This document shows positions 640 through 33,779 of a stretch of DNA of 64,000 nucleotides, in pieces. A program made the translations under genes and the position numbers. Each line of letters opens with the position of its first letter. Positions within the stretch are counted from its first letter, which is position 1. Source of the DNA: a virus (lineage: Duplodnaviria; Caudoviricetes); IMG/VR virus record IMGVR_UViG_3300029967_000162, positions 32,001 through 96,000 of that record; one strand, given 5' to 3'. Under the pieces are notes generated by a model, which saw nothing but the letters and a program-made list of their open reading frames with translations, did not search any database and was not told the DNA's origin.

Positions 640-1722
640 ATGGAAATCATAAACGAGAAGAAGTCTGTAGCGGCAACTTTGTTCTGGTCAGATATACAGA
701 GAATCATAGACTACATGCAGGCACATGGAAAGAACAAGCCTGTTGGAACAATCATTAAAGTCCCTGAAGAGATTTGTTTTACTCTGCTTGGGAAGTATTT
801 TGAAAATCTCAAGATAAGCTTAGAGATATCTAAAGAGATTGTATACAATGGAGAAACCTCTCCATTAGATGGCACCCAATATAATTGGGTTTCATATGAG
901 GAAGAAAGAACAAAAGAGCCTGACAAAGCATTAGAGTTTCCAGATAAGCTCAAAGACATATCAATTAAGATAAAAGCTTTCAGAGACCTGAGCCATGATG
1001 GTCTTGAGCTAGTCTTAGTGCATGAAATCAACCATCTGTGAGAGACATACAACAGAGCAAATGTTGAGATGCAGAAGCCAGAAGATGAAGTCGATGAGAC
1101 TTCTATGCTTGTCATGAATGGTCCAATAGACTTGAAGCTACTATTAAATGCACAGCAACTTCCTTGGATTTCAAAGAGATGCAAAGACATGCTAGGCTTG
1201 ATGTATCAGATATGGTCGCCGACAGAAAGGAATGCATATGTTGCAGAGTCTATCTCTATCCTAAGAAGAGAGATACCTTGGCATGAATATGAAAAGAAGA
1301 CTATATCCGATGAAGAGCTACTGAAGATGTTCACTACAACTAGCGTATACAGTTTCATACAAAAATCAAAGACCTTCATAGATGAAGACATTGAGAAACT
1401 CACAGAAAGAGAGCTAGAAGTCATCTTGTCTGTTTGTGTGTGCTTCAAGAATCCAAAGTCATTGCTTAAGTCTCCGGAGAAATTAAAAAAGATTCTAAAG
1501 ACAAAGAGCTTAGACTATCTTGACAAATATCAAAAGAAGATGTTGCATGTTATGAAGCTATGCAGAGAGATGACAGAGAATTTCATGGTCAGGCACTTAA
1601 AAACAAAGGGGTTGCTTGGATTGACACTTGCAACAGAAAGGCACTTCTTGTTTGAGAAGATTGATGAAGAGATAGAGAAAGAAAAGATAAAGATAGAAGA
1701 CAAGAAGGCATGGAGACTATAA
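640..1722 (+). CDS. Putative zincin-like (HExxH) protein, 360 aa
   Basis: ORFs 640..1041 and 1069..1722 are in frame, joined by TGA1039 (VHEINHL*ETY vs IHELNHLWTTY in paralog 15760..16743); downstream ExxA motif. Confidence 0.75.
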
Positions 1723-2903
1723 GTGAAAAGATAAACTGAACATCTCCAGAAGTCACAAGATTAGTTGAAGAGATTAGAGAAGTCTGCTTCAAGGATGATG
1801 TGCACACTGATTGCTCAAAGAACCGAATCAAGCATTTTAAAGTGCATCATCTAAATCTCTATGAGCAAATCAAAAAACAGTTTCCTGAAGTCACAAAGCC
1901 GGCTGAGGTAGTTTGATGGTGAGAGTTCTATGTGAAAGGCTTGCACAAGTGCAGTGCATGTGGAAAGATGCTTGAATACGGCAGAGGGGACCATCACTAC
2001 ACCTGATGTGATGAGTTCAAGTTCACACCATTCTGCTCTATAGAGTGCTCAAGGTCTGAGAAAGGCAATGCTTGTAGGATGGAGAAGACAAACAAGGCTT
2101 TCAAAGAGAAGTATGGCTGCACATTTGGTGGCCAGTATGCTGGAAATGAAGAGTTGAGGAGAAAGCAGAGAGAAAGCTTGAAGAGTCACTTTGGTGAGGA
2201 TGTTGAGAACCCAAGCCAGGCACAAGCAGTGAAAGACAAGAAAGTCAAGACATGCACAGAGCACTATGGTGGATATGGGTATGGAAGTGAAGAGCTGAGG
2301 AGGAGAGCTGAAGCAACATATAAGCAGAAGACTGGGTATAAGAATGCACAGCAAAATCCAGTGGTGAAAGCAAAGACTAAGCAAACAAACATTGAGAGAT
2401 ATGGCACAATCCTTCCAGCAAATGCAAAGCAATGGGACAACTATAGAAAAGAGTGGCTTTGGAAGTCTTGAGATACAAAGAGAGCAAACGGCACATTTGC
2501 ATCATCTAAGATCCAAGATGAAGTTGAGGAGTACTTAAAAGAAAAGTTTGGGAAAGTTGAGCATGAGTGGAATAAAGACAAGAGATATCCATGGCATTGT
2601 GACTTCTATGTTCCGAGCTTAGATCTATTCATAGAAGTGCAAGGGATGTGGACACATGGAAAGCATCCATTTGATATCACTAACAAAGAAGACTTAGCTT
2701 TACTTGAAATGTTGCAGGAGAAATCAAAGACTTCGAAGTTCTATCAAAATGCTGTTGATGTTTGATCTATTCGAGATGTAGAGAAAAGAAAGAAAGCAAT
2801 AGAAGAGAATCTCAACTTCTTTGAGTATTTTGGAAATGATTTTGAAGATTTCAAGTTACTCTTTGAAGACTATCTAAAAAACAAGAAGATGGAAGTGAAA
2901 TAA
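1710..2903 (+). CDS. Intact Zn-ribbon / repeat-array / PD-(D/E)XK endonuclease (free-standing homing endonuclease-like), 397 aa
   Basis: Single frame from ATG1710 to TAA2903 with six TGA read as Trp; CxxC...FCSxEC Zn ribbon, ~5 KxTxxERYG-type repeats, C-terminal YPWHCDFYVPSLDLFIEVQGMWTHGKHP nuclease motif. Confidence 0.8.
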
Positions 2904-2916
2904 CTTCCATCTTCTT
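2884..2916. terminator. Bidirectional intrinsic terminator-like hairpin
   Basis: AAGAAGATGGAAGT-gaaata-ACTTCCATCTTCTT between convergent genes. Confidence 0.7.
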
Positions 2917-2936
2917 TGAAAAGTTCAACCAGGAGA

Positions 2937-3542
2937 TTAAAGGGACACCTCATCTCAAAAATCCGCGCGGTATGTCATCTGAGCCGTCCAAAGATTGTCA
3001 TTGCCATAGTCAAAATCACCAAACCCAATGTTAGTAGTTGGGAATATGTTGTAGAATATCCACTGCATGAATGGGTTGCCTACCCTGTCATGGCGGGTCA
3101 CTGTCATGCTTGGTGCTACATAGTCCTTCTTGAGGCCCATCCTGCCAGTGAGTGGATCATAGATCAAGTCATTCCATGCACGCAAGAAGTTGTATGTGTA
3201 GTTGGATGGTGTGTCAGAAGTGTACCGAAGGTTGAGCTGCCAATTGATTTGGAGATCAACAGTAGTAGATGGCTGCGCACCTGCAAAGCTACGAACTGCA
3301 AACTTGTATTTCTGCTCTTTCACACTTCCAGAGCTCTTTGCGGTGTCAATGCCACTTACACTCTGTGCACCTTCAAGGATGACAAGCACTTCTTCATCAG
3401 AGGAAGACAGCCCAAGGCCAGTTGGAGGGTCCAGCTGGATCGTGAACATGTTTCCATATATAGGCTCATACAAGGATGTAGAGACACGTGAGCTACGGTA
3501 GTTGCTGAGTCCCAACAGTCCTTTTGACTTTTGTTCTGCCAT
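2937..3542 (-). CDS. Tail tube protein (T4 gp19-like)
   Basis: WNDLIYDPLTG...DY...FPT motifs; extends through TGA to YRADF(W)DEVSL-TAA, matching the aromatic/acidic gp19 C-terminus. Confidence 0.85.
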
Positions 3543-3705
3543 ATTTCTAAATAACTAAAATTTCATCTGTATGGTATTTATTTTGTTGTGGCTAGAAATA
3601 TGAAGCAAAAGATCAATGAAAGATTTTTTGAGATTTTTCATCTTCTTCCAAGACTTCTTCCTCTAGGACAATAAAAACTTTGAACATTTCAAAAAATTGA
3701 AGAAG

Positions 3706-4266
3706 ATGAAAGTCATCATTGTAGAAGGTCCTGCTGGACTTGGAAAGAGCTTGACAATAGACAACTTGCTTGACAAGATAGACAAAGAGAGTGATGGGAA
3801 GGCATTTGTGAAGTATGTGCGTTGCCAGCTTCCTGAGCAGAAGTCAGACATCATGACAATCAAGAAACCTTATGTGAGCCTCATAGATGAGCTCAAGGCG
3901 GATGCTGAAGATGAAGAGTTTGACTATGTCATCATTGAAGGATTCATTGAGAATGCAATTGTACATGTGCCTTCTCTGAGGGCTGAGCTCCAAGAGTTCT
4001 CCGACAAAGTTCTTGCAAGAGACTTCATCTCTGCTCTTGGTGAAGACAATGTGCTCTATGTCCAGCTTGCTGCATCTCCTAAGTGGGCTTATTCTACAGA
4101 TGGTTCAATGACGGAAGCAGAGAAGGAAGAAGAGGCAAAGCTCTATGATGAAGCTTTCGAGCAGGCTCCTTACAAGCACAAGAACAAGGTGCATGTAGAG
4201 CAGAACAATGGCTGGAAGGTGAACTTCAGAGTGCTTGATGAAGCTCTTGGAGGATTTGAGCTCTAG
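3706..4266 (+). CDS. P-loop nucleotide kinase-like protein (dNMP/thymidylate kinase-like)
   Basis: N-terminal IIVEGPAGLGKS Walker A; size ~186 aa. Confidence 0.6.
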   Translation: MKVIIVEGPAGLGKSLTIDNLLDKIDKESDGKAFVKYVRCQLPEQKSDIMTIKKPYVSLIDELKADAEDEEFDYVIIEGFIENAIVHVPSLRAELQEFSDKVLARDFISALGEDNVLYVQLAASPKWAYSTDGSMTEAEKEEEAKLYDEAFEQAPYKHKNKVHVEQNNGWKVNFRVLDEALGGFEL

Positions 4267-4383
4267 CTCAAGGCTTCAAGCTTTTTCATATTTTCATTTT
4301 GTGTAGTTTGGTTTTGGCCACACCTGAGAGATAAATCTTCTTGGTGTGGCATTTTTGTGCCATCTAACTTGTCTATCACACAC

Positions 4384-5232
4384 ATGGCTAAGAAGAAGTA
4401 CAATGTAGAGTCAATCCTTGAGGAAGTCTCCTCTGAAGACATACTCCAAGATGGGGAAGTCAACCTCAACTCATTCATATTGAAAGACGAGCTCTGCCCA
4501 GAGATTTGGCATGAAGGAAAGCTTGACAAGAGAATCCTCTCGCAGCTCGAGAAAGTCGCAAATGACTTCTTTGAGAAGCTTGACCTTGGGGACATACTCC
4601 CAGAGCTCTCTGAAGAAGAGATCCAGACTAAGCTCAGAGACATATACTTTATAGGGAGCCTTGCCTCTTACAACTGGTCTAAGTACTCCGACATTGACTT
4701 GCATCTTGTGATGGACTTCACAGAGCTTGCAGATGAGCATGACATGCCTCTCCTCAAGAAGTACTTCACTGCTTGCAAGAATGAGTGGAATCTTGCACAC
4801 CCTGACTTGAAAGTCCTTGGCTATGAAGTTGAAGTCTATGTCCAAGACATCAATGAAGAGAATGCGGCAAATGGCATCTACAGTGTGATGGATGATGAGT
4901 GGGTCAAAGAGCCAGAGACGATGGTCGAAGCAAACCTTGACAAGAGCCTTGTGCTGAAGAAAGTCAAGGACATCATGGTGCAAGTCGACATGCTTGAGAG
5001 ATTGGTAGAAGGTGCCCAGACTAAAGACTCGCTTGCATTGCCTTCTGAGTTTGCAAGCTCACTCTGGTCAAAGATCGTGCTCTCTAGGAGAGAGTCGCTT
5101 GCAGCCGGCCTTGGTGAGATGAACACGGACAACATCATCTTCAAGTGCTTGCGCAGGCTTGGCTACCTTGAGAAGCTCAAGAAGCTCAAGAACAAGATCT
5201 ATGACTTAGAGAACAGCACTGAGAGAGACTAA
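4384..5232 (+). CDS. Pol-beta superfamily nucleotidyltransferase
   Basis: GS...DxD signature (IGSLASYNWSKYSDIDLH) and a later EVEVYVQD acidic strand. Confidence 0.75.
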   Translation: MAKKKYNVESILEEVSSEDILQDGEVNLNSFILKDELCPEIWHEGKLDKRILSQLEKVANDFFEKLDLGDILPELSEEEIQTKLRDIYFIGSLASYNWSKYSDIDLHLVMDFTELADEHDMPLLKKYFTACKNEWNLAHPDLKVLGYEVEVYVQDINEENAANGIYSVMDDEWVKEPETMVEANLDKSLVLKKVKDIMVQVDMLERLVEGAQTKDSLALPSEFASSLWSKIVLSRRESLAAGLGEMNTDNIIFKCLRRLGYLEKLKKLKNKIYDLENSTERD

Positions 5233-5237
5233 GAGCT

Positions 5238-5810
5238 CTACAGCACCCCTAATGAGTGGAGGGTCTTCTCTGTGATGATGACAAACTCACAACCCCTCTC
5301 ATTCACATACTTCTTGGCGGCGTTCCACTTTGCGACATTCACTAAGTAAGTGTTTGCCTCATTGATGTATCTTCGGTGGTCTTTGAGCTTTGCACCTTGC
5401 TGGAGCGGCTTTGGGGCTTGTGTCTGAGCATAAGGCTTCACTTCACCGAACACTTTCTTCACTGTGCCATCTTGCTGCTTCACTTCCCACCAGAAGTCTA
5501 GGTAATATGTAGCTGGTGCAAAGTTGTGTGGGTCATTTGGATCTAAGCCTTGAGCCCTGCACTTAGTGAGGTTCTTGACTGGGTTGAGGTATGGTATGCC
5601 TATAGGCTCTGATGCTCACCGCACTATAGATGGAGACCGGTCAAGCCAAGACATGAAGGCATACTCTCATGATGACCGATACTCATTCACTCTAGAGATG
5701 CACTTCTCTGGATGGAGGGAAGGGATGAAGTACCCTTGCTTGTATCGAGTCTTGGACTCATCTAGTATTGGTGCATTCCTCTTCTTGTATGCAGCTAGGC
5801 TGCTTGCCAT
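5238..5810 (-). CDS. Head completion nuclease (T4 gp4-like, TnsA-like fold)
   Basis: YRSS*EYAFMSWLDRSPSIVR*ASEPIGIPY...YYLDFW...EVKP...NVAKWNAA...IITE; both TGAs fall at the conserved gp4 Trp positions. Confidence 0.9.
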
Positions 5811-5813
5811 GTG

Positions 5814-6248
5814 CTATGAGATTGGGTTCCACTCTGGGATGACAGATGTGTCACCAATGACATCCCAGTCATTGCCGGTAAAGACATACTCTTCATATGT
5901 GCCATCTACCTGCTTTACAAGATAGAATGTGTTTGACTCTGGTGTAGATGGGAGTGCACTCACGACTTCCATCTTCCATGCAGAAGCAGAAGCATTTGCA
6001 ACATACTCTTCAAAAGCCTCTTTGGTGACATATCCAGATCCTTCATCATCACTTCCTGCACTGTACCTATGCACACGGCGGTCATTCTCAAAGATTGAGC
6101 CTAGCACTTCTAAGTTGACTTTAGAAGAGATCTTAGCATATTTAGGGAGAGCCGTACTTGGGTCTGGGATGAGAGCAGCTTTAGAAGTGTCTTCTGGTGT
6201 CACAGTAGTGACATCGTATCTTGGATATGATATGACTTTGACTGACAT
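5814..6248 (-). CDS. Small virion-associated (fibre-like) protein
   Basis: VVSALPSTPESNTFYLV...YEEYVF...WDVIG motif typical of phage fibre/decoration modules. Confidence 0.5.
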   Translation of the reverse strand: MSVKVISYPRYDVTTVTPEDTSKAALIPDPSTALPKYAKISSKVNLEVLGSIFENDRRVHRYSAGSDDEGSGYVTKEAFEEYVANASASAWKMEVVSALPSTPESNTFYLVKQVDGTYEEYVFTGNDWDVIGDTSVIPEWNPIS

Positions 6249-7689: not shown

Positions 7690-7692
7690 GCC

Positions 7693-11740: not shown

Positions 11741-13813
11741 TTATTCACTTGGTATCTTCCAGTTGTATGTCGACCCATCTACAGTCAGCCAGCCATCTGC
11801 ATATGTCGCTCATGTCGGTGTAGAGTCTGCACCGACACCAATGTAGAATGTTGATGTGTCTGTCACCTCAGATCATTTGTATCCAGCTCCTCATGCTGCC
11901 CACCACCAGTCTGTCTCTTGTGCATTACCACTCTCATCTACATAGTTTGGATTCAGATACTGGAAGAATGGTGTGCTTCCAGAGTCAAGAATCTCCATCT
12001 TTGAAGAGTCAAGTATGAATGTGATCTCACCAACTGAAGTATCTAAGAGAGTGACTTTAGTTGTCTTCCCACCTTGAGCTGTCAATGGAGCAACTTCAAT
12101 GACTTTGTTTTGACAATACCAATCAATATAGAGCCAAGCAGGAGCAAGAGGCTCTTCAGATGCACGATTGTCTCATGACTCAATGCCTTTCTTGTTGCCA
12201 ATGTAGAAGATGTTCTCTTGCTTGTTCTTGGAGGTAGAGATGTTGATCTTTGCAATGACTTGAGGTGGCTCAACTGCCCACACCGAAACATCATTCGCCC
12301 AGTCATATCTCAAGAACTTGCTCATGTGATAGCTCTGCATTTCTTGGTATCCATCCAAGACATTGATAGTTGTTGATATTTGGTAGAGTGAGCCACAAGT
12401 GAATGTCACTGGCACAATGTCATAAGTGTCATGAGAGTGCATCTTGATTCTGACAATGCAAGCTGGATCTTCTTCTGTGCTGCCAGAATCTGTGAGAGCT
12501 TCACTTATGTCATATGTGATTGACTCTATGCTGACCAAAGTCTCATCAATTGAGACGTCAACTGTCTGCCACTCATTCCACGGCCAGATGTTGAGAGAGA
12601 TCTCAAACTCTTCATCTGCAATGACAGACTTGCCAGTCTCTAAGTTGAATGAAGCAACCCACCAGCTCTCAGCATCTGCCATGTCTTGGAGCGTCCAGCC
12701 TTCTGGCACACCAGAAGCAGAGTTAAGTGGGAACAAGTCTTTTGAAGCAGCTGGCAGCTTGTAGAGTGTGCCAGAAGTCGAGACATCTACAAGCCAAGCA
12801 TTGATGGCAGCATTGCTTTCATCTTGTGTTGGAGCAGTCGTCTGTGTTGTCACGACACGTGAAAGGCTAGTGCAGCCACTGAACATGCTGTTAAATGCAT
12901 GCTCAGCCGGAGCTGAGACATTTAGACGCTGTGTAGCTGTGAGTGAGGTGCAGCCACTGAACATCCTCTCACAGCCATAAGATGCAACTGAAGTCGCAGA
13001 CATTGCTGGCATCGCCCTCAAGCTTGTGCAGCCTTCAAACATGCTGCTATATGCATTCTCTGGAACATCTGTTGCAGAGAGAGACTTTGGTGGTGTTGTG
13101 AGTGAGGTGCAGCCTTCAAACATGCTTTGCATCGAGCCATGTCCGAGTGTTGTTGCAGCAATGCTAGGGCCTTTCACCAAGCTTGTGCAGTCTTTGAACA
13201 TCCCGGCATAAGTGTGCTTTGCAAGAGCAGCATCAGAGAGCTTTGGCACACTTGTGAGTGAAGAGCATCCATCGAACATGTGCCAAAATGCACCAACTGA
13301 AGCATCAGCTGGCACTTCAATCGACAGCTTTGATGCTGATGCCAACCCAGTGTCACCACCAAAGAGCCATGCATAGCGATACTCATCAGTGCTTGACAGC
13401 ACTCCATCTGCATATGCAGCTGACAGAGGTCCAGACACAGAGTGCTTGCTCTTAGAGTTGATCTTCCAAGCCACATTGTCTTTCTGTGTCGTTGCACTTG
13501 TCTTGCTTGTGAACTGCAAGCATGCAGACTTCCCTTCAGCAATAGTGATTGAAGTTGATGTGCTCTCTTCCCATGTCGTGCCACTGTCATAGGACACTTT
13601 GTATGCAAGAGATGGAAGCTGTGCAGGGTCATCTGCAACGCTCACAAAAGACAGAGTCATCTCACCGGTGTCCTCATTAGTGATCTTGAACCATGAGCCT
13701 GTGTCTTCTGGCCAGATTTGCACGTCATTCCAAAAGATTGCCTTCAATGGCAAGCCATTGTATGTGCCAGTTGCTGTGTTGCTGACTTGTATGTCACCTA
13801 TCTTGAGAGCCAT
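11741..13813 (-). CDS. BspA/DUF285-like leucine-rich-repeat surface or virion protein, 690 aa
   Basis: Repeated MF(E/S/D/K)(G/D)C(T/S)SL units of ~24 aa; ORFs 12173..13813 and 11891..12085 join through TGAs and end at TAA11741. Confidence 0.75.
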
Positions 13814-13822
13814 GCCTTCTCT

Positions 13823-15214
13823 TTATGCTTTGATTGTGAGAGTCTCAGTGTCAGCATCATATGTGAACATGCTGCTGATTGCTGACTTGTATGTGTCTGA
13901 CGCATCTGCGCAGCCACCTTCTGCTCCACGTATGCTGAGCCCGGCTATAGTGCAGCTGCCAGTGCCTCATGTGCTAGAGTCACAGAAGACCATGTTGCTT
14001 GTTGGGCACAGCACATCAGCTCCATAGAGTGTGAATGTTGCTGTAGAGTTCTCCATCTTGATGAAAGTCGGCACAAGGCTGCCGTAGTCCCAGGTCTCGC
14101 CGTTCACAAAGAACCTCGCATTCGTGATCATCGTGCCAGGCCCACTGAGCTTGAATCCGGTCTGGTATGTGTCTATGTAGCAGTTCGTTATCATGTCTGC
14201 ACTGCCAACATAGAAGACAGAGCCTTCAACAATCTTGTAGTCCTTGGAGCTCTTGAAGTCATATGTCCATGCATGCACATTCACTATAGAGCAAGAGCCG
14301 CCTGAGTTGATCGCTGTGTGGCAGTTTATCATGTTGACATCTGAGATTGCGCAGTCACCATTCAGTGCGATGCCTGTGCTCCAGAGGCCACCCCATGCAT
14401 GGCTGTCATCATAGTCATTGTCAAGCAGCAAGTGGTGGCAGTTCACCTGGAATGAGAAGTATGCATTCTTGGTCGTGCCATTGTCATCATAAGTGTATGT
14501 GATCGCCGGCTGGTGGATGCCGTAGTTGACGAAGTTGCGAATTGTAATGTGTGAGATGTCAGTGTCCATCTGTGTGCCTACATAGATGCCAGACTTAGCA
14601 CATTGATTGCACTCAATTGTGCCACCACGGCCAGTGATGAAGCTTCCAAATGTCGGCTTGTGGCCATTGATGACATTCATCGAGCCAGAGAACCCATTTT
14701 CACCTAGAGCTGGCTCGCCTGGCAAGTAGCCATTCATCTTGATTGCATATGACACACTGCAGTCTTTCCATGAGAGTGTCGCTCTATCAAGGTAGATGTG
14801 CATGAGCCCAAGAGACACCTCATCCTTCATGACATATGTGCCGGCTGGGAAGTAGAGTGTCTCATAAGGGTGCTCTGCATAGAGATCCATGAGAAGCTGT
14901 GCATTGTCTGTCTCACCATCATTCACAAGCCCATAGTCAAGCACATTCACATATGGTGCAGACATCATCCCTGCGATGATCGGATCTGGATCTGCTTCAG
15001 TGATGTCCTTTGCAACTCTCTTGATTGAGAGCACTTGGCCAAGAGAAGCATCAAGCAGCACACTAGCATCTATGACTTCAGATGTGAAGAGCTCATTGCC
15101 TTTGAAGATTGAGCCGCCTCCATCTGGGCTGTGCTTGAACCCAATCGCATTCTCTGGAAGCTCAACACTGCCAGAGTACACAGAAGATATGTCATAGAAG
15201 AGAACTTTGTCCAT
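13823..15214 (-). CDS. Pectate-lyase-3-like beta-helix protein (tailspike/depolymerase-like), 463 aa
   Basis: VNVLDYGLVNDGETDNA...LYFPAGTY motif; extends through TGA13967 to YDADTETLTIKA-TAA. Confidence 0.75.
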
Positions 15215-16886: not shown

Positions 16887-18176
16887 CTAAGAATTTCCAG
16901 ACCTAGTTTTCTTTGCTTTTTCTTGGAGCTCTCTAGATGCCATTCCTCATCCACCATATCTTTCTTTCATAGTCTTCATAGCCTTCTTCTTGATCTCTTC
17001 AGATTGATTTCAAACTCCACCATGACGCTTGATAGAGGTCTCAATCATCTTTGCTTTGATTACTTCATTTCCAGCCGGGGATGTTGAGCCATATTTCTCA
17101 AGATTGGTCTTCATTCTCTTCTCATGGAACTCTTTTTGTTGAAGTCATTCACTCAACTCCATATTTTTCTTTGTTTGTCTCCTTTGTCTTGTTTTTTATC
17201 ATCTCTATGCAAATCTGGGATTTCTTGCATTCATTTGAACATACCATTGGATATCCTAAAGCAAATCTGGAGAAAGGAAGAAAGTCTCCACACACAGGGC
17301 ATGTTAATGGAGAATTGATTCCATAGATCATCCTATACAAAATCTCTTGTGGCTTCATCCCAGGCTTATCATGATATCTGTTCATCAGATAGTCATAATA
17401 GTCTGGCTCATGAGCTTTGAGCCATTTTGTTCCAATATGAGTATGGTTATACCAGGTTCTTGTTGAAGGATCAATGAAATGGTTTATTATATCTTTCAAG
17501 GCATGTCTCTTTTATCTTCTCTTTAGTCTCTTTCGATTTCAAGACATTGTCTACACCATACCTCTCAATGCAAGTCCTCTTTGCTTTCTCCTGAAACTCT
17601 CTTGACTTCATTGGGTTGTCAACACCATATTTCTCAACAAGTGTTGCTTTTATCTTTTCTTTGACTTGATCTGAGCTCCATGAACATTCAGTGCCATATC
17701 TCTTCAAGCAAGTCTCTTTTGACTTTGCTTTTGCTTCTTTTGTCTTTGCAACATTGTCAACTCCATATCTGTCAAGACAAGTCAATCTAGCTTTCTCTTT
17801 AGTCTGTGCAGTTTTTGCTAGGTTGTCAATACCATATCTTTCTAAAGATGTCTTTAGACTTCTTGACAATAGCTTTCTTTCCTTCGCTTGAGTATTTGCA
17901 CTCTTTAGAGCAGTATGTCTGATATCCTAAAGAGAACCTATGAAATGGTATTTGATTGTTGCACACTAGACATTTTGGCGCTTCATCAACTTTGTTCAAA
18001 ATCCGGTAGATGACTTCTTGAGGGTCCATGTCTTCTTTATCATGATATCTGTTTATCAAGTAGTCATAGTATTGAGGCTCATGGACTTTTAGCCAGGTTG
18101 ACCATAGATGCAAACGGTTATATCATAAACCAGTAGAAGGATTGATGAAGTGATCTATTATGTCTTGGTCTGTCAT
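16887..18176 (-). pseudogene. Decayed tandem remnant of two repeat-array endonuclease genes (no nuclease domain)
   Basis: Two Zn-ribbon N-termini (DIIDHFINPST / DIINHFIDPST) each followed by KTxLERYG repeats; frameshifts near 17853, 17495 and 17145; C-terminal nuclease absent. Confidence 0.75.
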
Positions 18177-18265: not shown

Positions 18266-21200
18266 TTAAGATTCTGAAGAACTTATGGTCCCTAACTTTT
18301 GCAAAGTGAATGACATCACAATCTTCTCCATGCCTTTGCTCATCTCAAGATCGATATCAACAAGTCCAAAGGAATTTTGGATGACCTCGCTTGTATTGTT
18401 GCTTTCATCGCATACAATCGAGTAGGCTTGGATTGCACCACTGTTACGTGCTGCTTGGAGGATAGGAGTCAGCTTCGTCACAATTGCTGCCCTTGTCGCT
18501 GCAGTGTTATAAAGAAAGTTGAACTGCTTTAGCACTGCCTCACACTCAATCTCAAGAGTGTTGAGGTTCTCACGGACATGCAGCTTGTTGAAGTCTGACT
18601 TCAATGTCTGATAGCAAGTCTGGTTGCCATAGATCATGATCTGCCCATTCCTCTTGATGAGAGTGTTGACACCCATCGGCTCAAGGTAGTCACGGTCCTC
18701 TTGGTCAGCAAGATACTCGATGTCATTGATCTTCGAGTTGGTCAAGATGCCATTGAGGTTTGCTACGATCATCCATGGGTCACCACCTTGGTACTTGTGC
18801 ATGAGAGTGTTGGACACATCAGCTGCAGGTGGCACGCTGAGAGTCTTCGACCCAACCTTGTAAGTGAGGTATGGCCAGAAGGCAGCGGCAAACTTGGCGC
18901 CATCATCTTCAGAAGGCAAGCTGAAGCTCTTAGTTGCATAGAGCTCACGGTTGCCACCTTCAGGGATGTACTTCGTGTTGAATGCTGGCTTCACTTCCAT
19001 TCCTTGCACATAGCTGTCGCAGAAGTATGGGTTCTCACTGCAAGCAAACTCCTTCATAGATGGGAGGTTGAGGAGAGCCGTGCACTTGCCACGTTGCTTA
19101 GCCACACGAGCAAGGTGTGTCTTGCCGCCGAGGCCAGAGTCAAGGCCATAGCCCATAGAGTCGACGATGTACCTGAAGTCAACCATCTCATTGTTGCACA
19201 AGCCACGCAGGATGCCTTCATCCTCAAGCACCGCATAGATCTTCTCGATGCCACCTTCAATGTCGATGTTGCCATCAGCATCATAGCCTGGCTTGTGGCG
19301 AGAAGTGATCTTCAATCCCTTGAGAGGAATCCAACGGAGAGAGGTAGACACAGCGTCATCAGTGATTGGGAGCTGGCGAACTACACTATCTTCGAGAGTG
19401 TTCACGAAGATGCTTGAAGTTGCCTCAGTGCTGCCGACACCACCAATCGATGCGTAGTCGACGCCTGCCGTAGGCCATGTAGTGATCTCAGCAGAAGAAG
19501 AGTCATAGTCGACGCCATACTCATCTTCCCATGTGCTGATCTCCTTGATGTAGCCGTCTTCAACCTCATCCTCATACATGTTGTTGCCATCCTCATCCCA
19601 GATTGCTGGATAGAACTTGATGAAGGTGCCAGTGCTATTTCCGGATGCATCTTTCTGCTCAACCTCAACAAAGTCACGCTCAGTTGCATGCTGCTCAATG
19701 AGCACTGGATCGACAGTGGTGAAGAGGTAGAATCCCTGGGTGCCAAAGTCAGTGTTGACAATCATCTTAGACTGAGTGTAGTCATAGACAGTCGACTTGT
19801 AAGTGAACTGACTAGAAGCATTCACATTGACGAAGATCTTGTCAATCACACGGGTGATGCCTGGGATTGTCTTGTACTTCTGAGCAACACCAACCTCATT
19901 GTTGAAGGCGATGTTGTTGACATAGTCGCCGATCTTGATAGAAGAAGCTGCATCATCATCCATCACGATGAAAGTGGTGTAGTTGTCTTCCTCAACAGGG
20001 GTCTTGCCATCAGAAGTCTTGCCTGCATCATGGAAGTATGCTACAGAAGGCACATAGCTGACGAGCTCGCTTGTCCCAACGCCTGCCTCAGCGGTGTAGT
20101 TGTAAGAGAGGAAGTCAATTCCATATGTCTGGTCTACAGAGCCATACTCAGCAATGACGAGGTTGCCAAGAGAAGCATCTGCCTCAGCTGTGATGGTGTA
20201 GGTGACAGGATTCTTGGAAGTTGGGTAAGTCACCTCATAGCTCTCGACCTCATCCTCATCATTGACGTTGACGTCGACGTTGATGTCAGAAGAAGTCTGC
20301 TCAAAGACATCATAGTAGGTGGTAGTCCCACGCACTGTCTTAGCCTTCTCATAGAGCTTGTAGATGTCAGAGTCGACGACTTCGCCATTCGAGTCAAAGT
20401 CAAGCACGAGGTAGTTGCCATAGTAGGCACCACCAAACGATGCAGACTGAGCGTCATCAGAAGGAGATGTGTAAGTGATCTTCTTGGCAAGGCTGCCATC
20501 GCTGATCGTGAGGATGACCTTGTCATTGCCAGTCACCTGGCTGACAGTGAAAGTGTCATAGAGAGAAGGATCAACCTCGAGCTCTGCTTCTTCAGTGTCA
20601 AGCTGAGTGTAACGGATGATGCTGCCACTCACCTCAACATATCTGTAAGACTCATCAGAAGTGTCTTCTGCATTCACATAGACAGAGATGTCAGAAGTGA
20701 TCTGGCACGTGAGCACATCTTCCTCAGGATCATAAGAGAGCATGTAGCCGTACTTCTCGCCATTGAGGGTGAACTCATCTTCTACAGTGTAAGCTGCGGT
20801 GCCAGTGAGGTCATCATAGCTCTTGAGGTAGTAGTTGGAGCTGTTAGCAAACCTGACCGAGAGGTAGGATGAGTCGATGTCATTGCTGTAGTAAGTAGAG
20901 GCATTCGGCTCAGAGCCACCCCCAGTGAAGCCCTTCTGGAAGTTGTGGCCGACCATGTCGATGAGGTATGCTGTAGAAGAAGCCTCACCCTGAGAAGTCG
21001 TCATCTGGGAGTCACCGTCGATGTCATAGAACCAGCATCCCTTGCCACTCTCAGAGCCTTCATCTGCTGCACCATTGTAGTCATATGCAAGCACCTCTGC
21101 TGCATCTTCATTGAATGTAGCAAGGAGGCCGGTCTTCTCAGTCACAGCATTGATCTTAGCGACCAAGTTTTGCATGTTGCCTTGCTTGTCTTGGAAGTCT

Positions 21201-22120
21201 GGGATGATAGAGCCGGTTCAAGTGCCAAGGAGCGTTATGCCTTCAGCTCCGACAAATGAAGAGACTTTGTCTTTGAGGATGCCCTTGTTGTCGAAGTAGG
21301 AAGCCCAGATTGGGTCTGTAGCAAGGTGCGGATAGTTAGACCAGTTGCCCTTCACACAAATGACAGTCAGGAAGTACTCGGACATGTAGTCTGATGGACG
21401 GATCCAGCCATAAGGGATGTTCTCTGCACCGTTATATCATTCGGCTGCAGTGATGTCGTAGCCAGTCAGCCCTTCAGTCTTGTAGACCAAGATAGAGATC
21501 TCCTCAGTGCCGGTGTTGCCGAAGTTGAGGAAGTTAGAGTGCTCAAAAGAGCCAGAGTCGCCAGTAGAGAGCTTGTTGGCAGCGACTGCCATCAAGTTGT
21601 GGCTTGATGGAATCCAGAACCTAGACCTGTCAAACAGAGAAGAGTAAGGGGTCTTGCCAATGTATGGCACCATGTCACCTTCCTCTGTGCCATAGACCGT
21701 AGCATCTACAGATCCATAGAGGTAGTCATACTCACCATAAGCAGTGCCAGCTGAAGACACCTTTGGATTAGGTGTGCCGGCATCAAGTGAGAGCGCCGCA
21801 AAGTTGACTTGGTCAGGGCCTGACTCAGAGTCATCTACTGCAAGAAGGTTGAGTGCCAAGATCGGAGAGTTAGAGAGCATCGTCTGGGCAAAACGGTTGA
21901 AGAAGCAACCTTTGTGCTCAAGCTTTGTGTTGATCTCACCAAAGATCTGCTGGCGCTCAAGGTCAGAGTCAAGGTACACCGGCCTGTTGAATATACCCTT
22001 GTTAGCAAAGCCGACAAGCAGACGATAAGAGTCTGTAGTTGTGCTTATTGCTTCTTGGGTATTATCAAACTCCAGGGTGTAGACACCCGCACTCTTGAAT
22101 GAATCAAAGTTGATTACCAT
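18266..22120 (-). CDS. Tail sheath protein (T4 gp18-like), 1284 aa
   Basis: N-terminal SAGVYTLEFD...GFANKG..NRPV; C-terminal FWPY, DRDYL...GVN, IYGNQT, LHVRENL, CDESNN motifs; two ORFs joined via two TGAs (21437 and ~21218). Confidence 0.92.
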
Positions 22121-22225
22121 GAATTTGATAATAAATTTTGCAAAATATGTCTTACAACTTTTGCATTGCAGAATTCCAAGTCCTATTAAAGACTTAGATG
22201 CATATTTCACAAATATTTATTAGAT

Positions 22226-23531
22226 TTAGATTGTAGTGATGAATGAGCTGAACTGCTCTTTGAACTCTTCAAGGTCATTTCCAAAGTACTCAAAGAAGTT
22301 GAGGTGCTCTTCTTTAGCTTTGCTTCGCTTCATGACATCTGTGTTTGTCCAGACTTCTAGTGCATTTGCATAGTACTTAGAAGTCTTTGCACAGCTTTCC
22401 CATAAAGTTTTCTTGTTGAAGTCTTCTTGGCATCTCTCATCATATGGGTGATTGCCATGAGTCCATGTGCCTTGGACCTCAATAAACAAGTCAAGCGATA
22501 GCACATAGAAGTCGACATGCCAAGGGTATCTTAGGTCTTTGTTCCAGTTTCTTTCAACTTCACTGAATTGTGCCTGCAGCCAATCATAGATTGCATCTTC
22601 AATCTTAGAAGTGTTGCATGTCTTGTTTCTCTTTCGGGTCTCAAATCCTTTCTTTGCAACTTCAGCTCAAAAAGCACCATCTTTGAGATCTTGGTAATAC
22701 TTGACACCATGCTCTTTCAAATATCTTTCTTGGTATCTTTCTTTGAGCTCTTTTGACTTGAACACATTGTCAACACCATATCTCTCTAAGTTTGTCTTCT
22801 TTATCTTCTCATCTATTTCTCTTGAGTTGAACACACATCTTTCACCATATCTCTCTCTAAACAAGTCTTCTCTATCTTTTCTTGAACTTCTCTTGATTTA
22901 GATGGTGATGTCTCTCCATATCTCTTTAGACTTGTCTTCTTTGCTTTCTCTTTGATGTCTTCAGATTGCATTGGGGTGGAAACCCCATATCGCTCTAAGT
23001 TTGTCTTTTTGGCTTTCTCTTTAAAAGCATCTATAGCAAATGGATTCTCAGCACCGTATCTTTCAATGCAGCTCTTCTTTGACTTCTCTTTGACCTCTTC
23101 AAGTTGCATTGGATACTTCCCATCATACTTTTCAAAGAAATGCCCTTTGTCTTTTCTTTGACTTTCTCCGACTTTGATGGATTGTCAACACCATATCTTT
23201 CAAGAGAAGTCTTCATCATCTTCTCTTTCATGATTAAGTGACCTTCTGGAGATCTCATGCATCTTGCTGAACAAAAGTCTTTGTATCCTCGAGAAAATTT
23301 CAAAAACTCTAGAATTGAGCCGCACACTGGACATCTTGGAACTTCATCAACATGGTTAGCAATCCGATAGATTGGTTCAGCTATCTTGTCAGTTGAGTTG
23401 TCTTTGTATCTCTCTTTCAAATACTTGCATATCTCTGGACATAAAACATCAAGTCTGGTTCACCTTGATCTGACAATCTTCTTCAAGTTCCCATCTGGAA
23501 AGAAATGCTCAATGATGTCTTTGTCTGTCAT
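22226..23531 (-). pseudogene. Repeat-array PD-(D/E)XK endonuclease with two frameshifts
   Basis: Zn ribbon CPVCG..FCSARC, ~8 repeats, YPWHVDFYVLSLDLFIEVQGTWTHG; -1 shift near 23143 and an extra GA in a GA run near 22855. Confidence 0.8.
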
Positions 23532-27930: not shown

Positions 27931-28400
27931 AATTTATGCCAGGGGGCGGCAAATCTTCAAAATCCAACTTTTGATTAGTTAATCATCTTTGAACTTCTCC
28001 GCCCACTAGGGTAAACCTACACAATCCTAGGGCATTTCATGAAAGAACTTGAAGATTTAAGTTGAATTAGAAAAGCTAAGGACCTTTGAAATAGTTTTGT
28101 AACAAAATTGAAATATCTTTGAAACAAAACTTTAACAAAAATTTAACAAAATTTTGTAGACATTCCGCCCTGAAGTCGATACAATTCTTGTCTGGGACAA
28201 GGTCGGTGAAGGATCTAGTTAAAGTCTTAACTAGACTAGATCTAGTTAAGACTTTAACTTTAGTTAAAGAACTTTAACTAAAGTTAAAGACTTTAACTAA
28301 ACTAGACAGATCTAGTAGGCTTAGCAGAGAGAGTATGAGAGAGACTTCTTTCTGATGCTGAATCTCTACAGGAGACTGACAGGCCCTCCCGAAAAAATTC
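27931..28400 (-). repeat. Dispersed palindromic/iteron-like intergenic element, copy A
   Basis: Reverse complement of 59930-60400; ~120-bp core identical; four AGTTAA-n4-6-TTAACT palindromes with CTAGATCTAG spacers; TTTAACAAAA repeats. Confidence 0.92.
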
Positions 28401-28410
28401 CTTGGATTCT

Positions 28411-30333
28411 CTAAGTCAGTGCGACTGCATTCTCGACACTCAGCTTGCTGCTTGAGCTATAGCCAGTCACCTTGAGGTTGAACCCGCTCAAGTTGTCCAT
28501 CTGCTGGTCATCGACATAATTCACTCCATTCACAGAAGTGAAGTCTCCACGGAACATTGGGTAGATGTCTCTCACAGTATATGAAGCGCCAGTCGTGTCA
28601 TTCAATGTCCTAGTGAGCATGACATCCCCATACTCATCTAGCCCATAGTAGTTGTCAATCCCATAGATTGCACTATTCTCCTTGTCTGGGTCAAACGAGA
28701 CTTTCACAGAGTCAATCCCATCTACAGCCTCAAAGAGTGCGACGATGTCAGACACCGGCACGATGTCTCTCCTATTCAGTGAGATCAAGTAGTCAGAGAG
28801 TGCATCTACACAGCTGTTGTAGACATCTTCCTTGTTGTAGTTCTCCCAGAGCTTGACTTGGGCATTGATCGCAAACCGAGGGGTCTTTGGGTTGATGATC
28901 TTGTTCTCTATGGTGATCACGCGCTGGCCAGAAGACTCAATCAAGTCGATGATTCCTTGCTGCTCGTCTGTAGAGAGCAAGAACAAGTCTTCATCACATG
29001 TGAAGTAGTTAGAGCCAGAAGATGTCCTCTTCTTCAAGTCGGGCACAAGCATCAAGTACACTGTGTTGTCATCAAGCTCGCTGTCAGCAATCCGAGACTC
29101 GGCTTCTCTCACAGCATCAAGCTTCTCTTGGAGCGCCTCATAGAGCTCTGTAGCTTGTGAAGATGACTCACCATACAAGCTCACCGCATTGAGGTAGTCT
29201 TTAGATGCAAGCTCGTATGCATTGTAAGCTGTTGTCCAGCTTGCTTGTGCTTGTATGTCAGAGAATGTGTTGTAGCCAGAGATGACTTCTATCACAGAGA
29301 ACATGTTCATCCTCTTGAAGAAGTACTTGTAGTTGGTCTCATTTGCAAGGACCATTGACCGTGAGGCATGTGGAGCGATCTCTTGGGTGAGAGTGATGTT
29401 CTCTGCATCTGTGCCGAAGATGATGTCAGACGTGGAGCGGATCTTGAAGTATGAGTTGAGGTCAAGCGTAGTCCCATCTACAAGGTACCCATCTGAAGTG
29501 AACTCCCAGTACTCATCAGAGTTCATTGTCTCCATTGGGATGTTGCCGGCGAAGCCATCAGACACGATGTACTCTACCATGATCGTAGAGCCTTTTGCCG
29601 GCATTGCTCCCATGTTGCCATTGCCAAAGAAGACATCGACACCACCAGTCATGCCAGTCTTGACTACAGCAGCATGTTGATCATATCCTAAGTCTAGCAA
29701 TGAAGAGACAATCTCCCATCGCTCATTGTTGACATAGAGGTTGATGAACAGCTCATCTACTTCCCCATAGTTGCGCTCTGTGAAAGAGAATGACTGGAGT
29801 GGGGTCCCAAGGCCTGTGGCAGTCTGGTATGCAAGACGGCCTTGCACAACACCTGCTTCTACAAAGTTAGAGCCTGTCATGGTTATTCTAGCGCGATCAG
29901 CAGAAAATAAAACAATATAACTGAAACCATTAATTTTATTATTGATTGAAATTTTATTTGGAATATAGCAAACCTGCCCATCATATTCTTGGTTCCCAGT
30001 GTTGTAGTATGAAATCTTGACAGATCCTCGTGAAGATATGCATCGAGAAGGTACATGCCCCGTCAAAGTTGCAAGGCCGCGAATCTGCTCCGGCCGATAA
30101 CTGCTTTTTATGTTCGTGGATCCTATCGCATCCTCGATGTAATAAAAGATCATTCTTCCAAGATGGAGCAACACTGTCATGAGCTGCGCAAATGGCGAAG
30201 AAGAGTTGAAGTATTGCTTTGCTTCTCTATAAGACTGCTTGATGTAGTCCATGGCATCAGCATAGAGCTCTTCGAACTTTATGCGATTCAGCTTGAAAAT
30301 CTTTATGTTGTAGAATGAGTTGTCTGTTGCCAT
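28411..30333 (-). CDS. Baseplate wedge subunit (T4 gp6-like)
   Basis: FEEL...F..SSPF.QL, LA..GHVPSR, FGNGNMGAMP..G..I.VEY..SDG, R.V....Y motifs. Confidence 0.88.
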   Translation of the reverse strand: MATDNSFYNIKIFKLNRIKFEELYADAMDYIKQSYREAKQYFNSSSPFAQLMTVLLHLGRMIFYYIEDAIGSTNIKSSYRPEQIRGLATLTGHVPSRCISSRGSVKISYYNTGNQEYDGQVCYIPNKISINNKINGFSYIVLFSADRARITMTGSNFVEAGVVQGRLAYQTATGLGTPLQSFSFTERNYGEVDELFINLYVNNERWEIVSSLLDLGYDQHAAVVKTGMTGGVDVFFGNGNMGAMPAKGSTIMVEYIVSDGFAGNIPMETMNSDEYWEFTSDGYLVDGTTLDLNSYFKIRSTSDIIFGTDAENITLTQEIAPHASRSMVLANETNYKYFFKRMNMFSVIEVISGYNTFSDIQAQASWTTAYNAYELASKDYLNAVSLYGESSSQATELYEALQEKLDAVREAESRIADSELDDNTVYLMLVPDLKKRTSSGSNYFTCDEDLFLLSTDEQQGIIDLIESSGQRVITIENKIINPKTPRFAINAQVKLWENYNKEDVYNSCVDALSDYLISLNRRDIVPVSDIVALFEAVDGIDSVKVSFDPDKENSAIYGIDNYYGLDEYGDVMLTRTLNDTTGASYTVRDIYPMFRGDFTSVNGVNYVDDQQMDNLSGFNLKVTGYSSSSKLSVENAVALT

Positions 30334-30481
30334 GCTATATTTCTAGAATATAAATTTGCCAAAATTCGCCTTTAAATATTATATTGCTTCTATATAAACC
30401 AATATAATATTATTCTTAAAATTACTTATTTTTTAATACTTTCAATTTCAAAATAAATAATTTAAAGAACATTATATTTAT

Positions 30482-31102
30482 ATGAAAGCTAAGGAGGTGA
30501 TGAAAGTCTTAGGCATTTCAAGACAAACTCTTTTCAACTATCTCAAGCAAGGCAAGATTACACTCAATGCAAAGTTGAACAAGAACTTCTATGACTATAA
30601 TGAAGACTCAGTTTATGCATTGATTTGCAACAAGAAGAACAAGCATAATAGACAGGTTGTATCATATGCAAGAGTTTCTTCTCAAAACCAAAAAGAACAG
30701 CTCAAGACACAAAACCAAAGAATTTATGAGTCATGCATATCTAGAGGACTTAATCTTGACTTGCAACTAGATGACATCAAGTCAGGCATGTCTGCTGATC
30801 GCAAAGGATTTCAAAAGCTTCTTAATATGGTACTACAAAATGAAGTAGAGGTAGTTGTCATTGAAAATAAAGATCGGCTCATCAGATTTGGATATGAAAT
30901 CATTGAATATGTCTTTAAATGTTTTGGAACTAAAATCTTAGTACTCAATGATGTACTAGAGAATAAGTCTTATGAGCAAGAATTGACTGAAGACTTGATA
31001 AGTATAATTCACTACTTCACTATGAAAAACTACTCACATAGAAGAAAGTTGAATAGATTGAGGAAAGAGCTTGAAGAAAGTGAAAAGTATCAAGATAAAT
31101 AA
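30482..31102 (+). CDS. tnpA: IS607 serine transposase
   Basis: N-terminal MerR-type HTH, YARVSS, DIKSG, ENKDRLIRFG, ELTEDLISII..F..K.YS.R. Confidence 0.93.
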   Translation: MKAKEVMKVLGISRQTLFNYLKQGKITLNAKLNKNFYDYNEDSVYALICNKKNKHNRQVVSYARVSSQNQKEQLKTQNQRIYESCISRGLNLDLQLDDIKSGMSADRKGFQKLLNMVLQNEVEVVVIENKDRLIRFGYEIIEYVFKCFGTKILVLNDVLENKSYEQELTEDLISIIHYFTMKNYSHRRKLNRLRKELEESEKYQDK

Positions 31103-31126
31103 ACTGTAACAAATCTATATTGCTTG

Positions 31127-32410
31127 ATGAAGACAATTAAGCTTGACATAAAGAAGTCTTGTACTTTAGACATCCAAGACTTGACAAGTACCTACAACTC
31201 AATTGTCAGGTTCAGCTTCAATCGTTTTCAAGAAGGATATAGATTTCCAGAAGTTAGGAACTTAGCCAACCAAACTTTTAAAGAGAAGAATGACTTGAAC
31301 TGTTGGATCATTCAGTGTGCGATCAAAGAAGGGTTCGAGCTAGTCAAGAAGGTTGGCAATAAGCACATCTTGTTTGGCGGAAAAGCTTTGTGAAAGAAGT
31401 ACTTAAAGAAGGAGATCACAAAGAAAGAGTTCAAATATGCTAGGATGAGGCCGGTCTGTATTGTTGGTGAAGCTCAATATCACGGCAACAGATTGATAGA
31501 CTTTGACTTAGTGAATGACAAGCTGACTTTGAAGCTTTCAAGGAAAGATCATCAGCTGATTGAGCTTGAGCAGCCACACAAAAAAGTCCAAGCAGAGCTC
31601 AACAGAGTCCAAGAGCTTGCAGAGAACAAGCTCATGCCAGTCACAGTCATGCTCACAAGCGAGTATGTCTGGTTGACTTATGATGAAAGTCTTCTCAAGA
31701 TCCACCAGCTCTGCAACTTGAAGGCTAACAGAGTACTAGGCATTGACTTGAATCCAAATGCACTAGGCATCTCTATTCTTGAGTTTGAGGAGCAAGACAA
31801 CTTCAAAGTCTTGCACAAAGAAGTAATAGACACATTCAAGCTCAACCAAGACAAAGTCTCAACAAACAAGAGGAAGTTTGAGTTGATCCAAATCTGCTAT
31901 CATGTCAAGAACCTAGTTGACTGTTGGAAGTGCGGCAAAGTTGCCATAGAAGAGCTCAATATCAAGCCAGGTGACAAAGGCAAAGGTCGGTGGTTCAACA
32001 AGATGTGCAACAACAGGTGGGACAGAAGCTTAGTAGCCAACAAGTTGAAGATGCTAGGCAATGAGTGAGGATTTGAAGTCATAGAAGTCAATCCTGCCTA
32101 TTCAAGCTTTGTTGGCAACATCCTCTATGGTGATGGAAACACACCAGACATGGTTGCTAGTTCGATTGAAATAGGCAGAAGGTCATACAAGAAATATTCT
32201 AAAGACTGGTTCTGACCTGCTTACAACATAGAAGGCATAGATGAGCAATGGAAGCAAACAGCTGCTGGAGTTGGAAGTTGGAAAGAGTTCTACAGTCAAG
32301 TGAAAGAACTTAAACTGAAATATAGGTTCCTGCTAGCTGACTTAGTCGGCAATGCAGTCTTCAGCAAATTCTATAGAAGAAGCAAGACAAGTTTATATAG
32401 TTTTGCTTAA
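31127..32410 (+). CDS. tnpB: TnpB-related RuvC nuclease, 427 aa
   Basis: Fragments joined by three TGAs (31391, 32066, ~32213); GIDLNP, AIEEL, VNPAYSSFVG, PDMVASSIEIGRR. Confidence 0.85.
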
Positions 32411-32430
32411 AATATTATAGATTTTGTATT

Positions 32431-33779
32431 TTTTGTTCTGATTGCTGTAGATGTTCTGATGAAGGAAAAAGATATACAAGAAAAAAGACAAAGCAGACAT
32501 GCCTTGAAAGATATGGTGTAGAAAGCCAAACACAACTGAAAGAAACACAAGAAAAAATCAAACAGACCTGCTTAGAAAAATACGGGGTCACTAATGCATT
32601 GAGATCTAAAGGCTCACAAGAGAAATCAAAGCGAACTTGCTTAGAGCGGTATGGCTCAGAGGTCCCAATGAAATCAAATGTGATTAAAGAAAAATCAAAG
32701 CGAACTTGCTTAGAGAAGTATGGTGTTGAATATTCATTAAAAGCTGAAAAAGTGAAGAAAAAATAAAGCAGACTTGCCTAAAAAAATATGGAACAGACAA
32801 TCCAGCCAAAGCTGAAGAAGTCAAAGAAAAATCAAAGCGAACTTGCTTAGAGAAGTATGGTGTTGGCAATACAAGAAAAGCAAAACAAGTTAAAGAAAAA
32901 ATCAAGCAGACTTGCTTAGAGCGATATGGAGCTGATGCCCCACTTAAGTCAAAAGAGGTACAAGAAAAAATCAAGCAGACTTGACTTGACAAATATGGTG
33001 TTGACAATCCAGCTAAAGCTGAAGAAGTCAAAGAAAAAGAAAGACAGACCTGCTTAGAGCGATATGGTGTTGACAATGCTTTGAAGTCTGAAGCAATCCA
33101 AGAAAAAAGAAAGGAAACACTTCTAAATAACTATGGTGTAGATGTTCCATTCAAGTCAGAAGAAATTAAAGAAAAGAAAAGACAGGTTTTCTTGAAGAAA
33201 TATGGTTCAACAAGTCCATTTGGTTCAAAAGAAATCCAAGAGAAAATAAAGCAAACACTCATAAAAAGATATGGAGTTCCTGCTGCAATGCAGTCTGAAG
33301 AAATCAAGATGAAGATAGATTACACTGAAATTTCAAAGAAAGGATTTGAAACCCGTCGTGAACATGGAACTCTCAGTACCTCTAAGATTGAAGATGAAGC
33401 ATTTGCTTGGCTTTTTGACAATTTCACTGATGTGAAAAGAAACTGAAACAATGATCCAAGGTATCCTTGGCATGCTGACTTCTATGTCCCATCACTTGAC
33501 TTGTTCATAGAGATACAAGGCAGCTGGACTCATGGCAAGCACCCATATGATATGACTTCACAAGATGACCTCACAAAGAAAGCTTTATGAGAGAGCAAAG
33601 CTGCTACTTCAGGGTACTATGCAAATGCTCTTGAAGTCTGGACTATCAGAGATGTTGAGAAACGCAAAGCTGCAGCTGCCAACAACCTCAGGTTCTTTGA
33701 GTACTTTGGCAACTCCTTAGAAGACTTCAAGGCTCAGCTCTCAGCTTTCATAGAACAAAAGTGCCAAGACAAAGCATAG
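32431..33779 (+). pseudogene. 5'-truncated repeat-array endonuclease with 12 repeats of 23 aa
   Basis: Begins mid Zn-ribbon (FCSDCCRCSDEG); frameshift in an A-run near 32760; C-terminal YPWHADFYVPSLDLFIEIQGSWTHGKHP intact when TGA = Trp. Confidence 0.82.

Follow-up and report, generated by a model that had tools for sequence, protein, structure and literature searches.

Probable Hef-like homing endonuclease genes with arrays of 23-residue repeats in a TGA-recoded Lak-type phage

The Hef-like homing endonucleases of phages, among them Hef of phage U5 and F-LimIII, F-LimVII, F-LimVIII and F-LimX of Dickeya phage LIMEstone1, are encoded by free-standing genes next to tail genes, and form a known group that has been annotated since 2012. 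F-LimVIII, classed as Hef-like (PMC3296691), has its gene between those for tail tube gp19 and sheath gp18; the protein runs from a C-x2-C...FCS-x2-C ribbon through a DUF7487 region (90.7 bits) to a DUF559/MTES_1575 nuclease. Here we describe four loci, likewise free-standing and beside tail genes, in a window of 64,000 nucleotides (bases 32001-96000 of the 134,147-bp IMG/VR record IMGVR_UViG_3300029967_000162; CheckV completeness 24%). Judged by their sequences, the loci, numbered 1 to 4 by position, are further members of this group. They are probably copies of a Hef-like free-standing homing endonuclease gene (HEG) of the EDxHD (Vsr-like) family, one of them intact and the others decaying.

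Several described systems share parts of this architecture. The EDxHD family was named by Taylor et al., who include "Hef type" endonucleases in it (PMC3239194). Its prototype, I-Bth0305I (PDB 3R3P), resembles the proteins considered here in having an N-terminal DNA-binding region followed by a C-terminal Vsr-like nuclease with the residues E, D, H and D and an extra Glu, but it is intron-encoded, carries two NUMOD2-like helix-turn-helix motifs, and has neither zinc ribbon nor DUF7487 array. Those motifs, a feature of the prototype and not of the whole family, were not found here, nor was any NUMOD or other known homing-endonuclease DNA-binding module at E values up to 10. Vsr of E. coli (1CW0) is the best structural match to the nuclease and has a similar G-x-W/F-x-H-G-x-H block; unlike the present proteins it is a single-domain repair nickase, with H64 where they have Q and F62 where they have an invariant Glu. 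Homing endonucleases of the T5orf172 type, with repeated CapR/DUF723/DUF4397 zinc-finger modules in which repeat recombination leads to in-frame deletions (Barth et al. 2023, PMC10448857), are alike in concept, being phage homing endonucleases with repeated DNA-binding modules, and DUF723 accompanies DUF7487 in some homologs. Their modules, however, are zinc fingers that fold independently ("beads on a string") and are linked to a GIY-YIG-like nuclease, whereas the units here are single helices of 23 residues without a metal site.

The repeats are confined to the four loci. A strict unit motif, sought in all six frames of the window with TGA read as tryptophan, matched 23 times, always inside the four loci and at 69-nt spacing, and Tandem Repeats Finder reported a period of 69 at 32685-33077. 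In a six-frame search of the whole record, DUF7487 (PF24308; curated cut-off 27 bits) exceeded its cut-off only at window positions 2070-2567, 16905-17863, 22694-23231 and 32485-33368. These searches bear out the four arrays of 23-residue units that an earlier note on this DNA had picked out from the sequence alone, and the repeat numbers given there (about 5, 5+4, 8 and 12) agree with our counts (Table 1). So does its description of three loci with a near-invariant nuclease block: there are three nuclease domains, 55-64% identical to one another, in all of which the block DFYV..LDLFIE.QG.WTHG.HP is invariant. The zinc ribbon, which had been assigned to every locus, is present in loci 1 to 3, but locus 4 keeps only its last FCSxxC half.

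Locus 1, proposed earlier as the intact copy, does read as one: from the ATG at 1710 it is open only with TGA as tryptophan, with six TGA codons and no internal TAA or TAG, and it keeps all the conserved catalytic residues. It overlaps the end of the upstream open reading frame (ORF) by 13 nt, and another 13 nt separate its stop from the start of the next ORF. Its array is the shortest and most degenerate of the four. Loci 2 to 4 are interrupted and are not intact genes. Locus 4 starts partway through the zinc ribbon, directly after an element resembling the insertion sequence (IS) IS607; its 5' end is lost, and the missing part was not found upstream of that element. The locus also has a 1-nt deletion in an A-rich run (32752-32771); its distal ORF at 32706-33779 is still open and encodes a protein of 357 aa (P0113). 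In locus 3 there is a 1-nt shift at about 23137-23156, and the (GA)n run at 22845-22860 holds an additional GA. In locus 2, from which the nuclease domain is absent, two truncated tandem copies, A and B, have frameshifts at about 17850-17867 and 17144-17172 and are fused at 17481-17497 within a common AAAGATAT (8-nt microhomology), where the fifth unit of copy A (...CLERY) passes directly into ...KDIINHF of copy B. Because long open stretches persist in loci 3 and 4 (212 codons in the former, 357 in the latter), these are counted as recently broken. As read from the assembly, then, locus 1 is intact, loci 3 and 4 are recently broken, and locus 2 is the remnant of two successive insertions.

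An AlphaFold2 (AF2) model of P0113 has a mean predicted local distance difference test (pLDDT) score of 91.5, and its residues 224-357 align with Vsr (1cw0) at Z 9.8 and a root-mean-square deviation (rmsd) of 3.0 over 111 residues, and with the catalytic domain of I-Bth0305I (3r3p) at Z 9.1 and an rmsd of 2.8 over 94 of 98 residues. Foldseek likewise placed Vsr first, with a probability of 0.99 but E = 0.086. D258, E269 and D316 do not vary across 66 homologs, in at least 90% of which E229 and H276 are also kept; these five residues are spaced as E25, D51, position 62, H69 and D97 of Vsr (D to E, 11; D to H, 18), an assignment of catalytic residues made from spacing and fold, without residue-level superposition. 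E269 falls at the position of Vsr F62, where an extra invariant Glu marks the Vsr-like homing endonucleases (Dassa et al., PMC2677866). The predicted domain is thus Vsr-like, of the EDxHD type, with a PD-(D/E)XK-superfamily fold. The earlier assignment to PD-(D/E)XK nucleases accordingly stands for the superfamily fold and fails for the strict motif: in place of the canonical D...(D/E)-x-K, all three copies have D...E-V/I-Q, with Gln at the Lys position.

The DUF559 and MTES_1575 models do not recognise the nuclease domain, and a profile search of solved structures returned weak matches only, among them YacG and FCS zinc fingers (E about 0.14-0.2), which the N-terminal C-x2-C...FCS-x2-C ribbon weakly resembles, and 3k93 (E 0.006), whose I-D-T-K aligns with the I-E-V-Q found here.

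Kinship to known homing endonucleases emerges from several searches. The array on its own, used in tblastn, found 84 phage records, several of them annotated as homing endonucleases and including F-LimVIII, and the ESM Atlas clusters matched by a database homolog (P0013) carry the name "Homing endonuclease". F-LimVIII and P0113 match in BLASTP at 8e-26, in an alignment that extends into the nuclease motif. The two share the order of ribbon, DUF7487 "KYGV" units and Vsr-like nuclease (D-x-Y-x-P...IE..G..WH); they differ in that the F-LimVIII array is at most 38% identical to that of P0113, and in that the genes described here are written in a code with TGA as tryptophan and have a nuclease that the DUF559/MTES_1575 models miss.

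The surroundings of the loci fit this kinship. Locus 2 lies downstream and locus 3 upstream of the tail sheath gene, and locus 4 has a gp6-like baseplate wedge gene nearby. That loci of this kind sit beside conserved virion genes, as free-standing homing endonuclease genes do, had been suggested before and is borne out by these positions; of the named neighbours, the sheath on both sides and the gp6-like gene were recovered, but a tail-tube gene beside locus 1 was not confirmed with PHROGs or Pfam. The four loci have a GC content of 37-40%, lower than that of the record (43%) and of the sheath gene (48.5%), and this is counted as foreign composition, in favour of a homing endonuclease origin.

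Evidence for movement comes from relatives. Lak megaphages each hold 5-8 nuclease-bearing copies. In Lak-A2, two copies of 403 aa (L002 268-1479 and 2932-4143), with 5 and 8 recoded TAG in 403 codons, lie on segments of 1234 nt and about 1165 nt that are precisely missing from Lak-A1, Lak-B3 or Lak-C1, and the flanks around the insertions are 98.9% identical between Lak-A2 and Lak-A1. For the Lak-A2 copy at MK250019 438802-440013, the empty site in Lak-A1 is at about position 2919 of L003. Such clean presence and absence is what free-standing HEGs would be expected to show, and it supports mobility of these relatives. For the four copies in the present phage, mobility is putative.

Reading these genes depends on the genetic code of the phage. 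When TGA is read as sense (code 4), the coding density is 0.925 instead of 0.862 and ORFs average 314 aa instead of 218, and read-through of TGA merges ORF pieces into long genes such as that for a tail sheath protein of 1314 aa. TGA sites of the homing endonuclease genes align to columns of homologs that hold W (63/64 and 46/64), Y (61/64) or F/Y/I; residue 352 of locus 1, encoded by TGA, falls in the column with W in 63 of 64 homologs. Because the aligned columns are W, Y or F/Y/I, TGA is taken to encode Trp and not Gly. The same alignment rules out TGA as Gly (code 25), and together with the gain in density and the six in-frame TGA codons of locus 1 it rules out the standard code. A search of the record with ARAGORN gave no tRNA bearing a UCA anticodon. 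The record is a fragment of a Lak-type gut phage recoded to TGA as Trp, and its full genome may reach several hundred kilobases, given a CheckV completeness of 24% at 134 kb and the size of Lak phages. The closest relatives of the homing endonucleases are in the Lak megaphages of about 540 kb, in which TAG is recoded where the present phage recodes TGA. Six TGA in the 398 codons of locus 1 amount to 15 per 1000, compared with 3.3 per 1000 in the long genes of the record, though the sample is small.

The array joined to this nuclease is the least familiar part of the protein. DUF7487 occurs in at least 4749 proteins, with up to 18 units at a dominant spacing of exactly 23 residues and with median flanks of 97 aa on the N-terminal and 155 aa on the C-terminal side of the array; it also scored above cut-off in Corynebacterium glutamicum, a control genome. 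In AF2 models, of which that of the array alone is confident (pLDDT 92.2), each unit is built from a helix of 15 residues, a G-V-(D/E)-x loop and a P-x-x segment of one turn. When the array alone was compared with solved structures, no match was found (best Z 3.7, TM score at most 0.17). Positions K1, K3, T5, L7, K9, Y10 and G11 of the unit are conserved and positions 2, 4, 13-16, 19 and 20 vary. The claim that variation is concentrated after the YG pair did not hold, since helix positions 2, 4, 19 and 20 vary as much as positions 13-16. Position 14 is nevertheless restricted: of 1383 unique units, 87% have N, Y, H, S or C there.

Partner domains of the array include, besides the EDxHD-like nuclease, true Vsr, TnsA_N, DUF1064, DUF559/MTES_1575, Mom/GNAT and a methyltransferase-like region. 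Since it is joined to several catalytic domains that act on DNA, the array is likely to have a DNA-targeting role. Its length also varies. Exact insertions or deletions of 23 and 46 aa distinguish proteins that are otherwise about 100% identical; P0022, P0038 and P0015, at about 100% identity, have 7, 8 and 9 units, and between P0009 and P0005, at 95% identity, the difference is a single unit. Because length shifts by exact 23-residue steps between otherwise identical proteins, the array is a separable module, and the modular character proposed for these repeats is upheld both by these length changes and by the fusion to various DNA-acting domains.

The comparison with TALE proteins and their nuclease derivatives, the TALENs, fared less well. 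TALE units have 33-35 residues and two helices, and are near-identical except at two residues. The present proteins share with them a tandem helical array of variable unit number, here naturally joined to a nuclease. The units, however, have 23 residues forming one helix and a turn; non-corresponding units are 28-57% identical, at least eight of the 23 positions have high entropy, and no structural match was found. The TALEN comparison is a loose analogy of architecture only.

If the four loci are Hef-like homing endonuclease genes, several readings of the arm and of the intact copy need to be weighed alongside. The most substantial takes the array to be a length-tolerant and largely non-specific DNA-affinity arm or ruler, with specificity coming mainly from a (possibly dimeric) nuclease. 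Precedent exists in I-Bth0305I, whose catalytic domains read a central 14 bp while contacts of the N-terminal region, spread over a footprint of about 60 bp, are mostly non-specific (PMC3239194). Alleles of 7, 8 and 9 units that coexist and are otherwise unchanged suggest length tolerance, and K1, K3, T5 and K9 are alike in every unit, as would be expected of backbone contacts. Units nevertheless keep their identity between orthologs (the variable positions are 77% identical in corresponding units and 28% in non-corresponding ones), and this, together with the small polar alphabet at position 14, speaks against a purely non-specific arm, which we regard as a real possibility while leaning somewhat away from it. 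The rate of change at the variable positions, about 1.5 times that of the rest of the unit in a comparison of orthologs and paralogs over 11 independent pairs, is not decisive either way. At the other extreme stands the strong form of what the earlier note envisaged, in which the variable residues of a unit recognise one base or a few and the array is a natural programmable code analogous to a TALEN. Exact unit insertions and deletions, the modular build, fusion to many effector domains, the N/Y/H/S/C restriction in the loop at position 14, and a confident helical-repeat model unlike any solved structure could all be read this way; but units that differ at eight or more positions are far from near-identical, and the intact copy in the window has a degenerate array, so such a code seems unlikely. 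Much the same doubt attaches to the broader proposal that DUF7487 arrays are a new modular class of double-stranded-DNA readers, in which each unit would contact a fixed step of DNA, position 14 and neighbouring variable residues would set base preference, and unit shuffling would retarget phage nucleases and DNA-modifying enzymes.

Two further readings change the role of the protein. HEG-derived nucleases with repeated DNA-binding modules have been repurposed in conflict between phages and satellites (Barth et al. 2023, PMC10448857), and with that precedent the intact copy could be a domesticated nuclease directed against competing phages or satellites or serving to degrade host DNA; its richness in TGA (15 compared with 3.3 per 1000 codons), through which its translation depends on TGA as Trp, fits such a role. 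The pattern of multiple, decaying, intergenic copies and the presence and absence of relatives in Lak phages are, on the other hand, the signature of a selfish element, and domestication appears improbable. Helical repeats and a Vsr-like RAP domain occur together in FASTK/RAP proteins, and by analogy the protein might act on RNA, binding and cutting it; we consider this very improbable. Proteins with RAP domains do occur among the structural matches of the C-terminal domain (9g6k_Li Z 8.0; FASTKD4 9gek Z 7.8), but Vsr and I-Bth0305I score higher, the conserved residues are spaced as in their active sites, and the genes behave in genomes as DNA homing elements do.

Several observations weigh against the preferred reading of Hef-like homing endonuclease genes in successive stages of decay. 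No relative of the present phage lacking the HEGs was found around the sheath gene among viral and metagenome contigs. The array of locus 1 is weak and irregular, with two of its five units passing the unit hidden Markov model and a DUF7487 score of 40.8 bits. Consensus units carry a net charge of about +1 each and are rich in Glu, so that the putative DNA-binding surface is not obviously basic. Some whole-unit differences in metagenome proteins could be assembly shortcuts through common 30-nt stretches, and a single assembly underlies the frameshifts, the one further contig recovered (by exact-protein look-up of the baseplate gene) being 100% identical. The members described here are known from genes and predicted structures, from which we infer cleavage, binding and homing; DNA binding by the array, cleavage of both strands, the target sites and the activity of locus 1 are all to be taken in this sense.

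With those reservations, the Hef-like reading suggests how such a gene would persist. Ribbon and array would align the protein with an extended tract of DNA beside a conserved gene, the nuclease would cut at a site there, and repair from a HEG-bearing genome would copy the gene into the cut one. Recombination between units would add or remove whole units and so alter the reach of the arm, and perhaps its preference. The copies in the window, intact, recently broken and remnant, would then reflect the usual life cycle of such elements.

Some other features of the window were also noted. The IS607-like element that abuts locus 4 lies within a phage structural region, between the baseplate wedge gene and the locus, and its TnpB-like ORF has three in-frame TGA codons and is open only with TGA as sense. 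A second IS-like pair, at about 39696-41345, consists of a Y1 transposase of 99 aa (PF01797) and an OrfB_IS605/Cas12f-like TnpB of 437 aa (40032-41345), with Pfam matches taken from an identical contig of the Joint Genome Institute (JGI). In the sheath gene, the matches to the best and to two other sheath profiles fall in the C-terminal third, at residues 992-1306. Near the tail genes, two large ORFs at 11741-15214 on the minus strand encode a protein of 690 aa with a BspA-type leucine-rich repeat (LRR)/DUF285 region (4 TGA) and a protein of 463 aa with a pectate-lyase-like domain; these are possibly receptor-binding or depolymerase proteins.

Table 1. Homing endonuclease loci and neighbouring features, in window coordinates.
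Feature	Position	Strand	Details
Locus 1, sole intact copy	1710..2903	+	397 aa under TGA=W (P0114); DUF7487 40.8 bits; phrog_3339 "homing endonuclease"
Locus 1, Cys4 ribbon	~1950-2048	+	
Locus 1, array	~2073-2495	+	~5 degenerate units
Locus 1, Vsr-like nuclease	2472-2900	+	
Locus 2, two truncated tandem copies	16887..18176	-	A, ribbon + 5 units; B, ribbon + 4 units
Tail sheath gene	18266..22210	-	1314 aa, 2 TGA read through; phrog_34521, 3.6e-81
Locus 3, two frameshifts	22226..23531	-	ribbon + 8 units + nuclease; C-terminal piece, DUF7487 42.8 bits
Locus 3, nuclease	22229-22642	-	
Baseplate wedge (gp6-like) gene, near locus 4	28411..30333	-	phrog_219, 5.4e-17
IS607-like element abutting locus 4	30482..32410	+	
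IS607-like element, serine-recombinase TnpA	30482-31102	+	phrog_6620; NF033518 163 bits (cut-off 110)
IS607-like element, TnpB-like ORF	31124-32410	+	428 aa, RuvC-like motifs; TIGR01766 24 bits, below cut-off
Locus 4	32431..33779	+	ribbon 3' half (FCSDCC) + 4+8 units + nuclease; DUF7487 178.7 bits
Locus 4, nuclease	33348-33776	+	

As genes, the four loci are ordinary: they belong to a named group of selfish homing endonucleases, and this recoded megaphage holds them at various stages of decay. The part that merits attention is the presumed DNA-binding arm, for DUF7487 is present in thousands of phage proteins and has apparently never been studied; in the literature searched, neither DUF7487 nor PF24308 appears in any paper. 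Repeated, recombining DNA-binding modules have already been described in another class of homing endonucleases (Barth et al. 2023). Should the array prove to be a non-specific arm, it would still explain how a large group of homing endonucleases holds long target sites; should it read DNA unit by unit, it would offer a new and compact scaffold with which enzymes could be directed to DNA.

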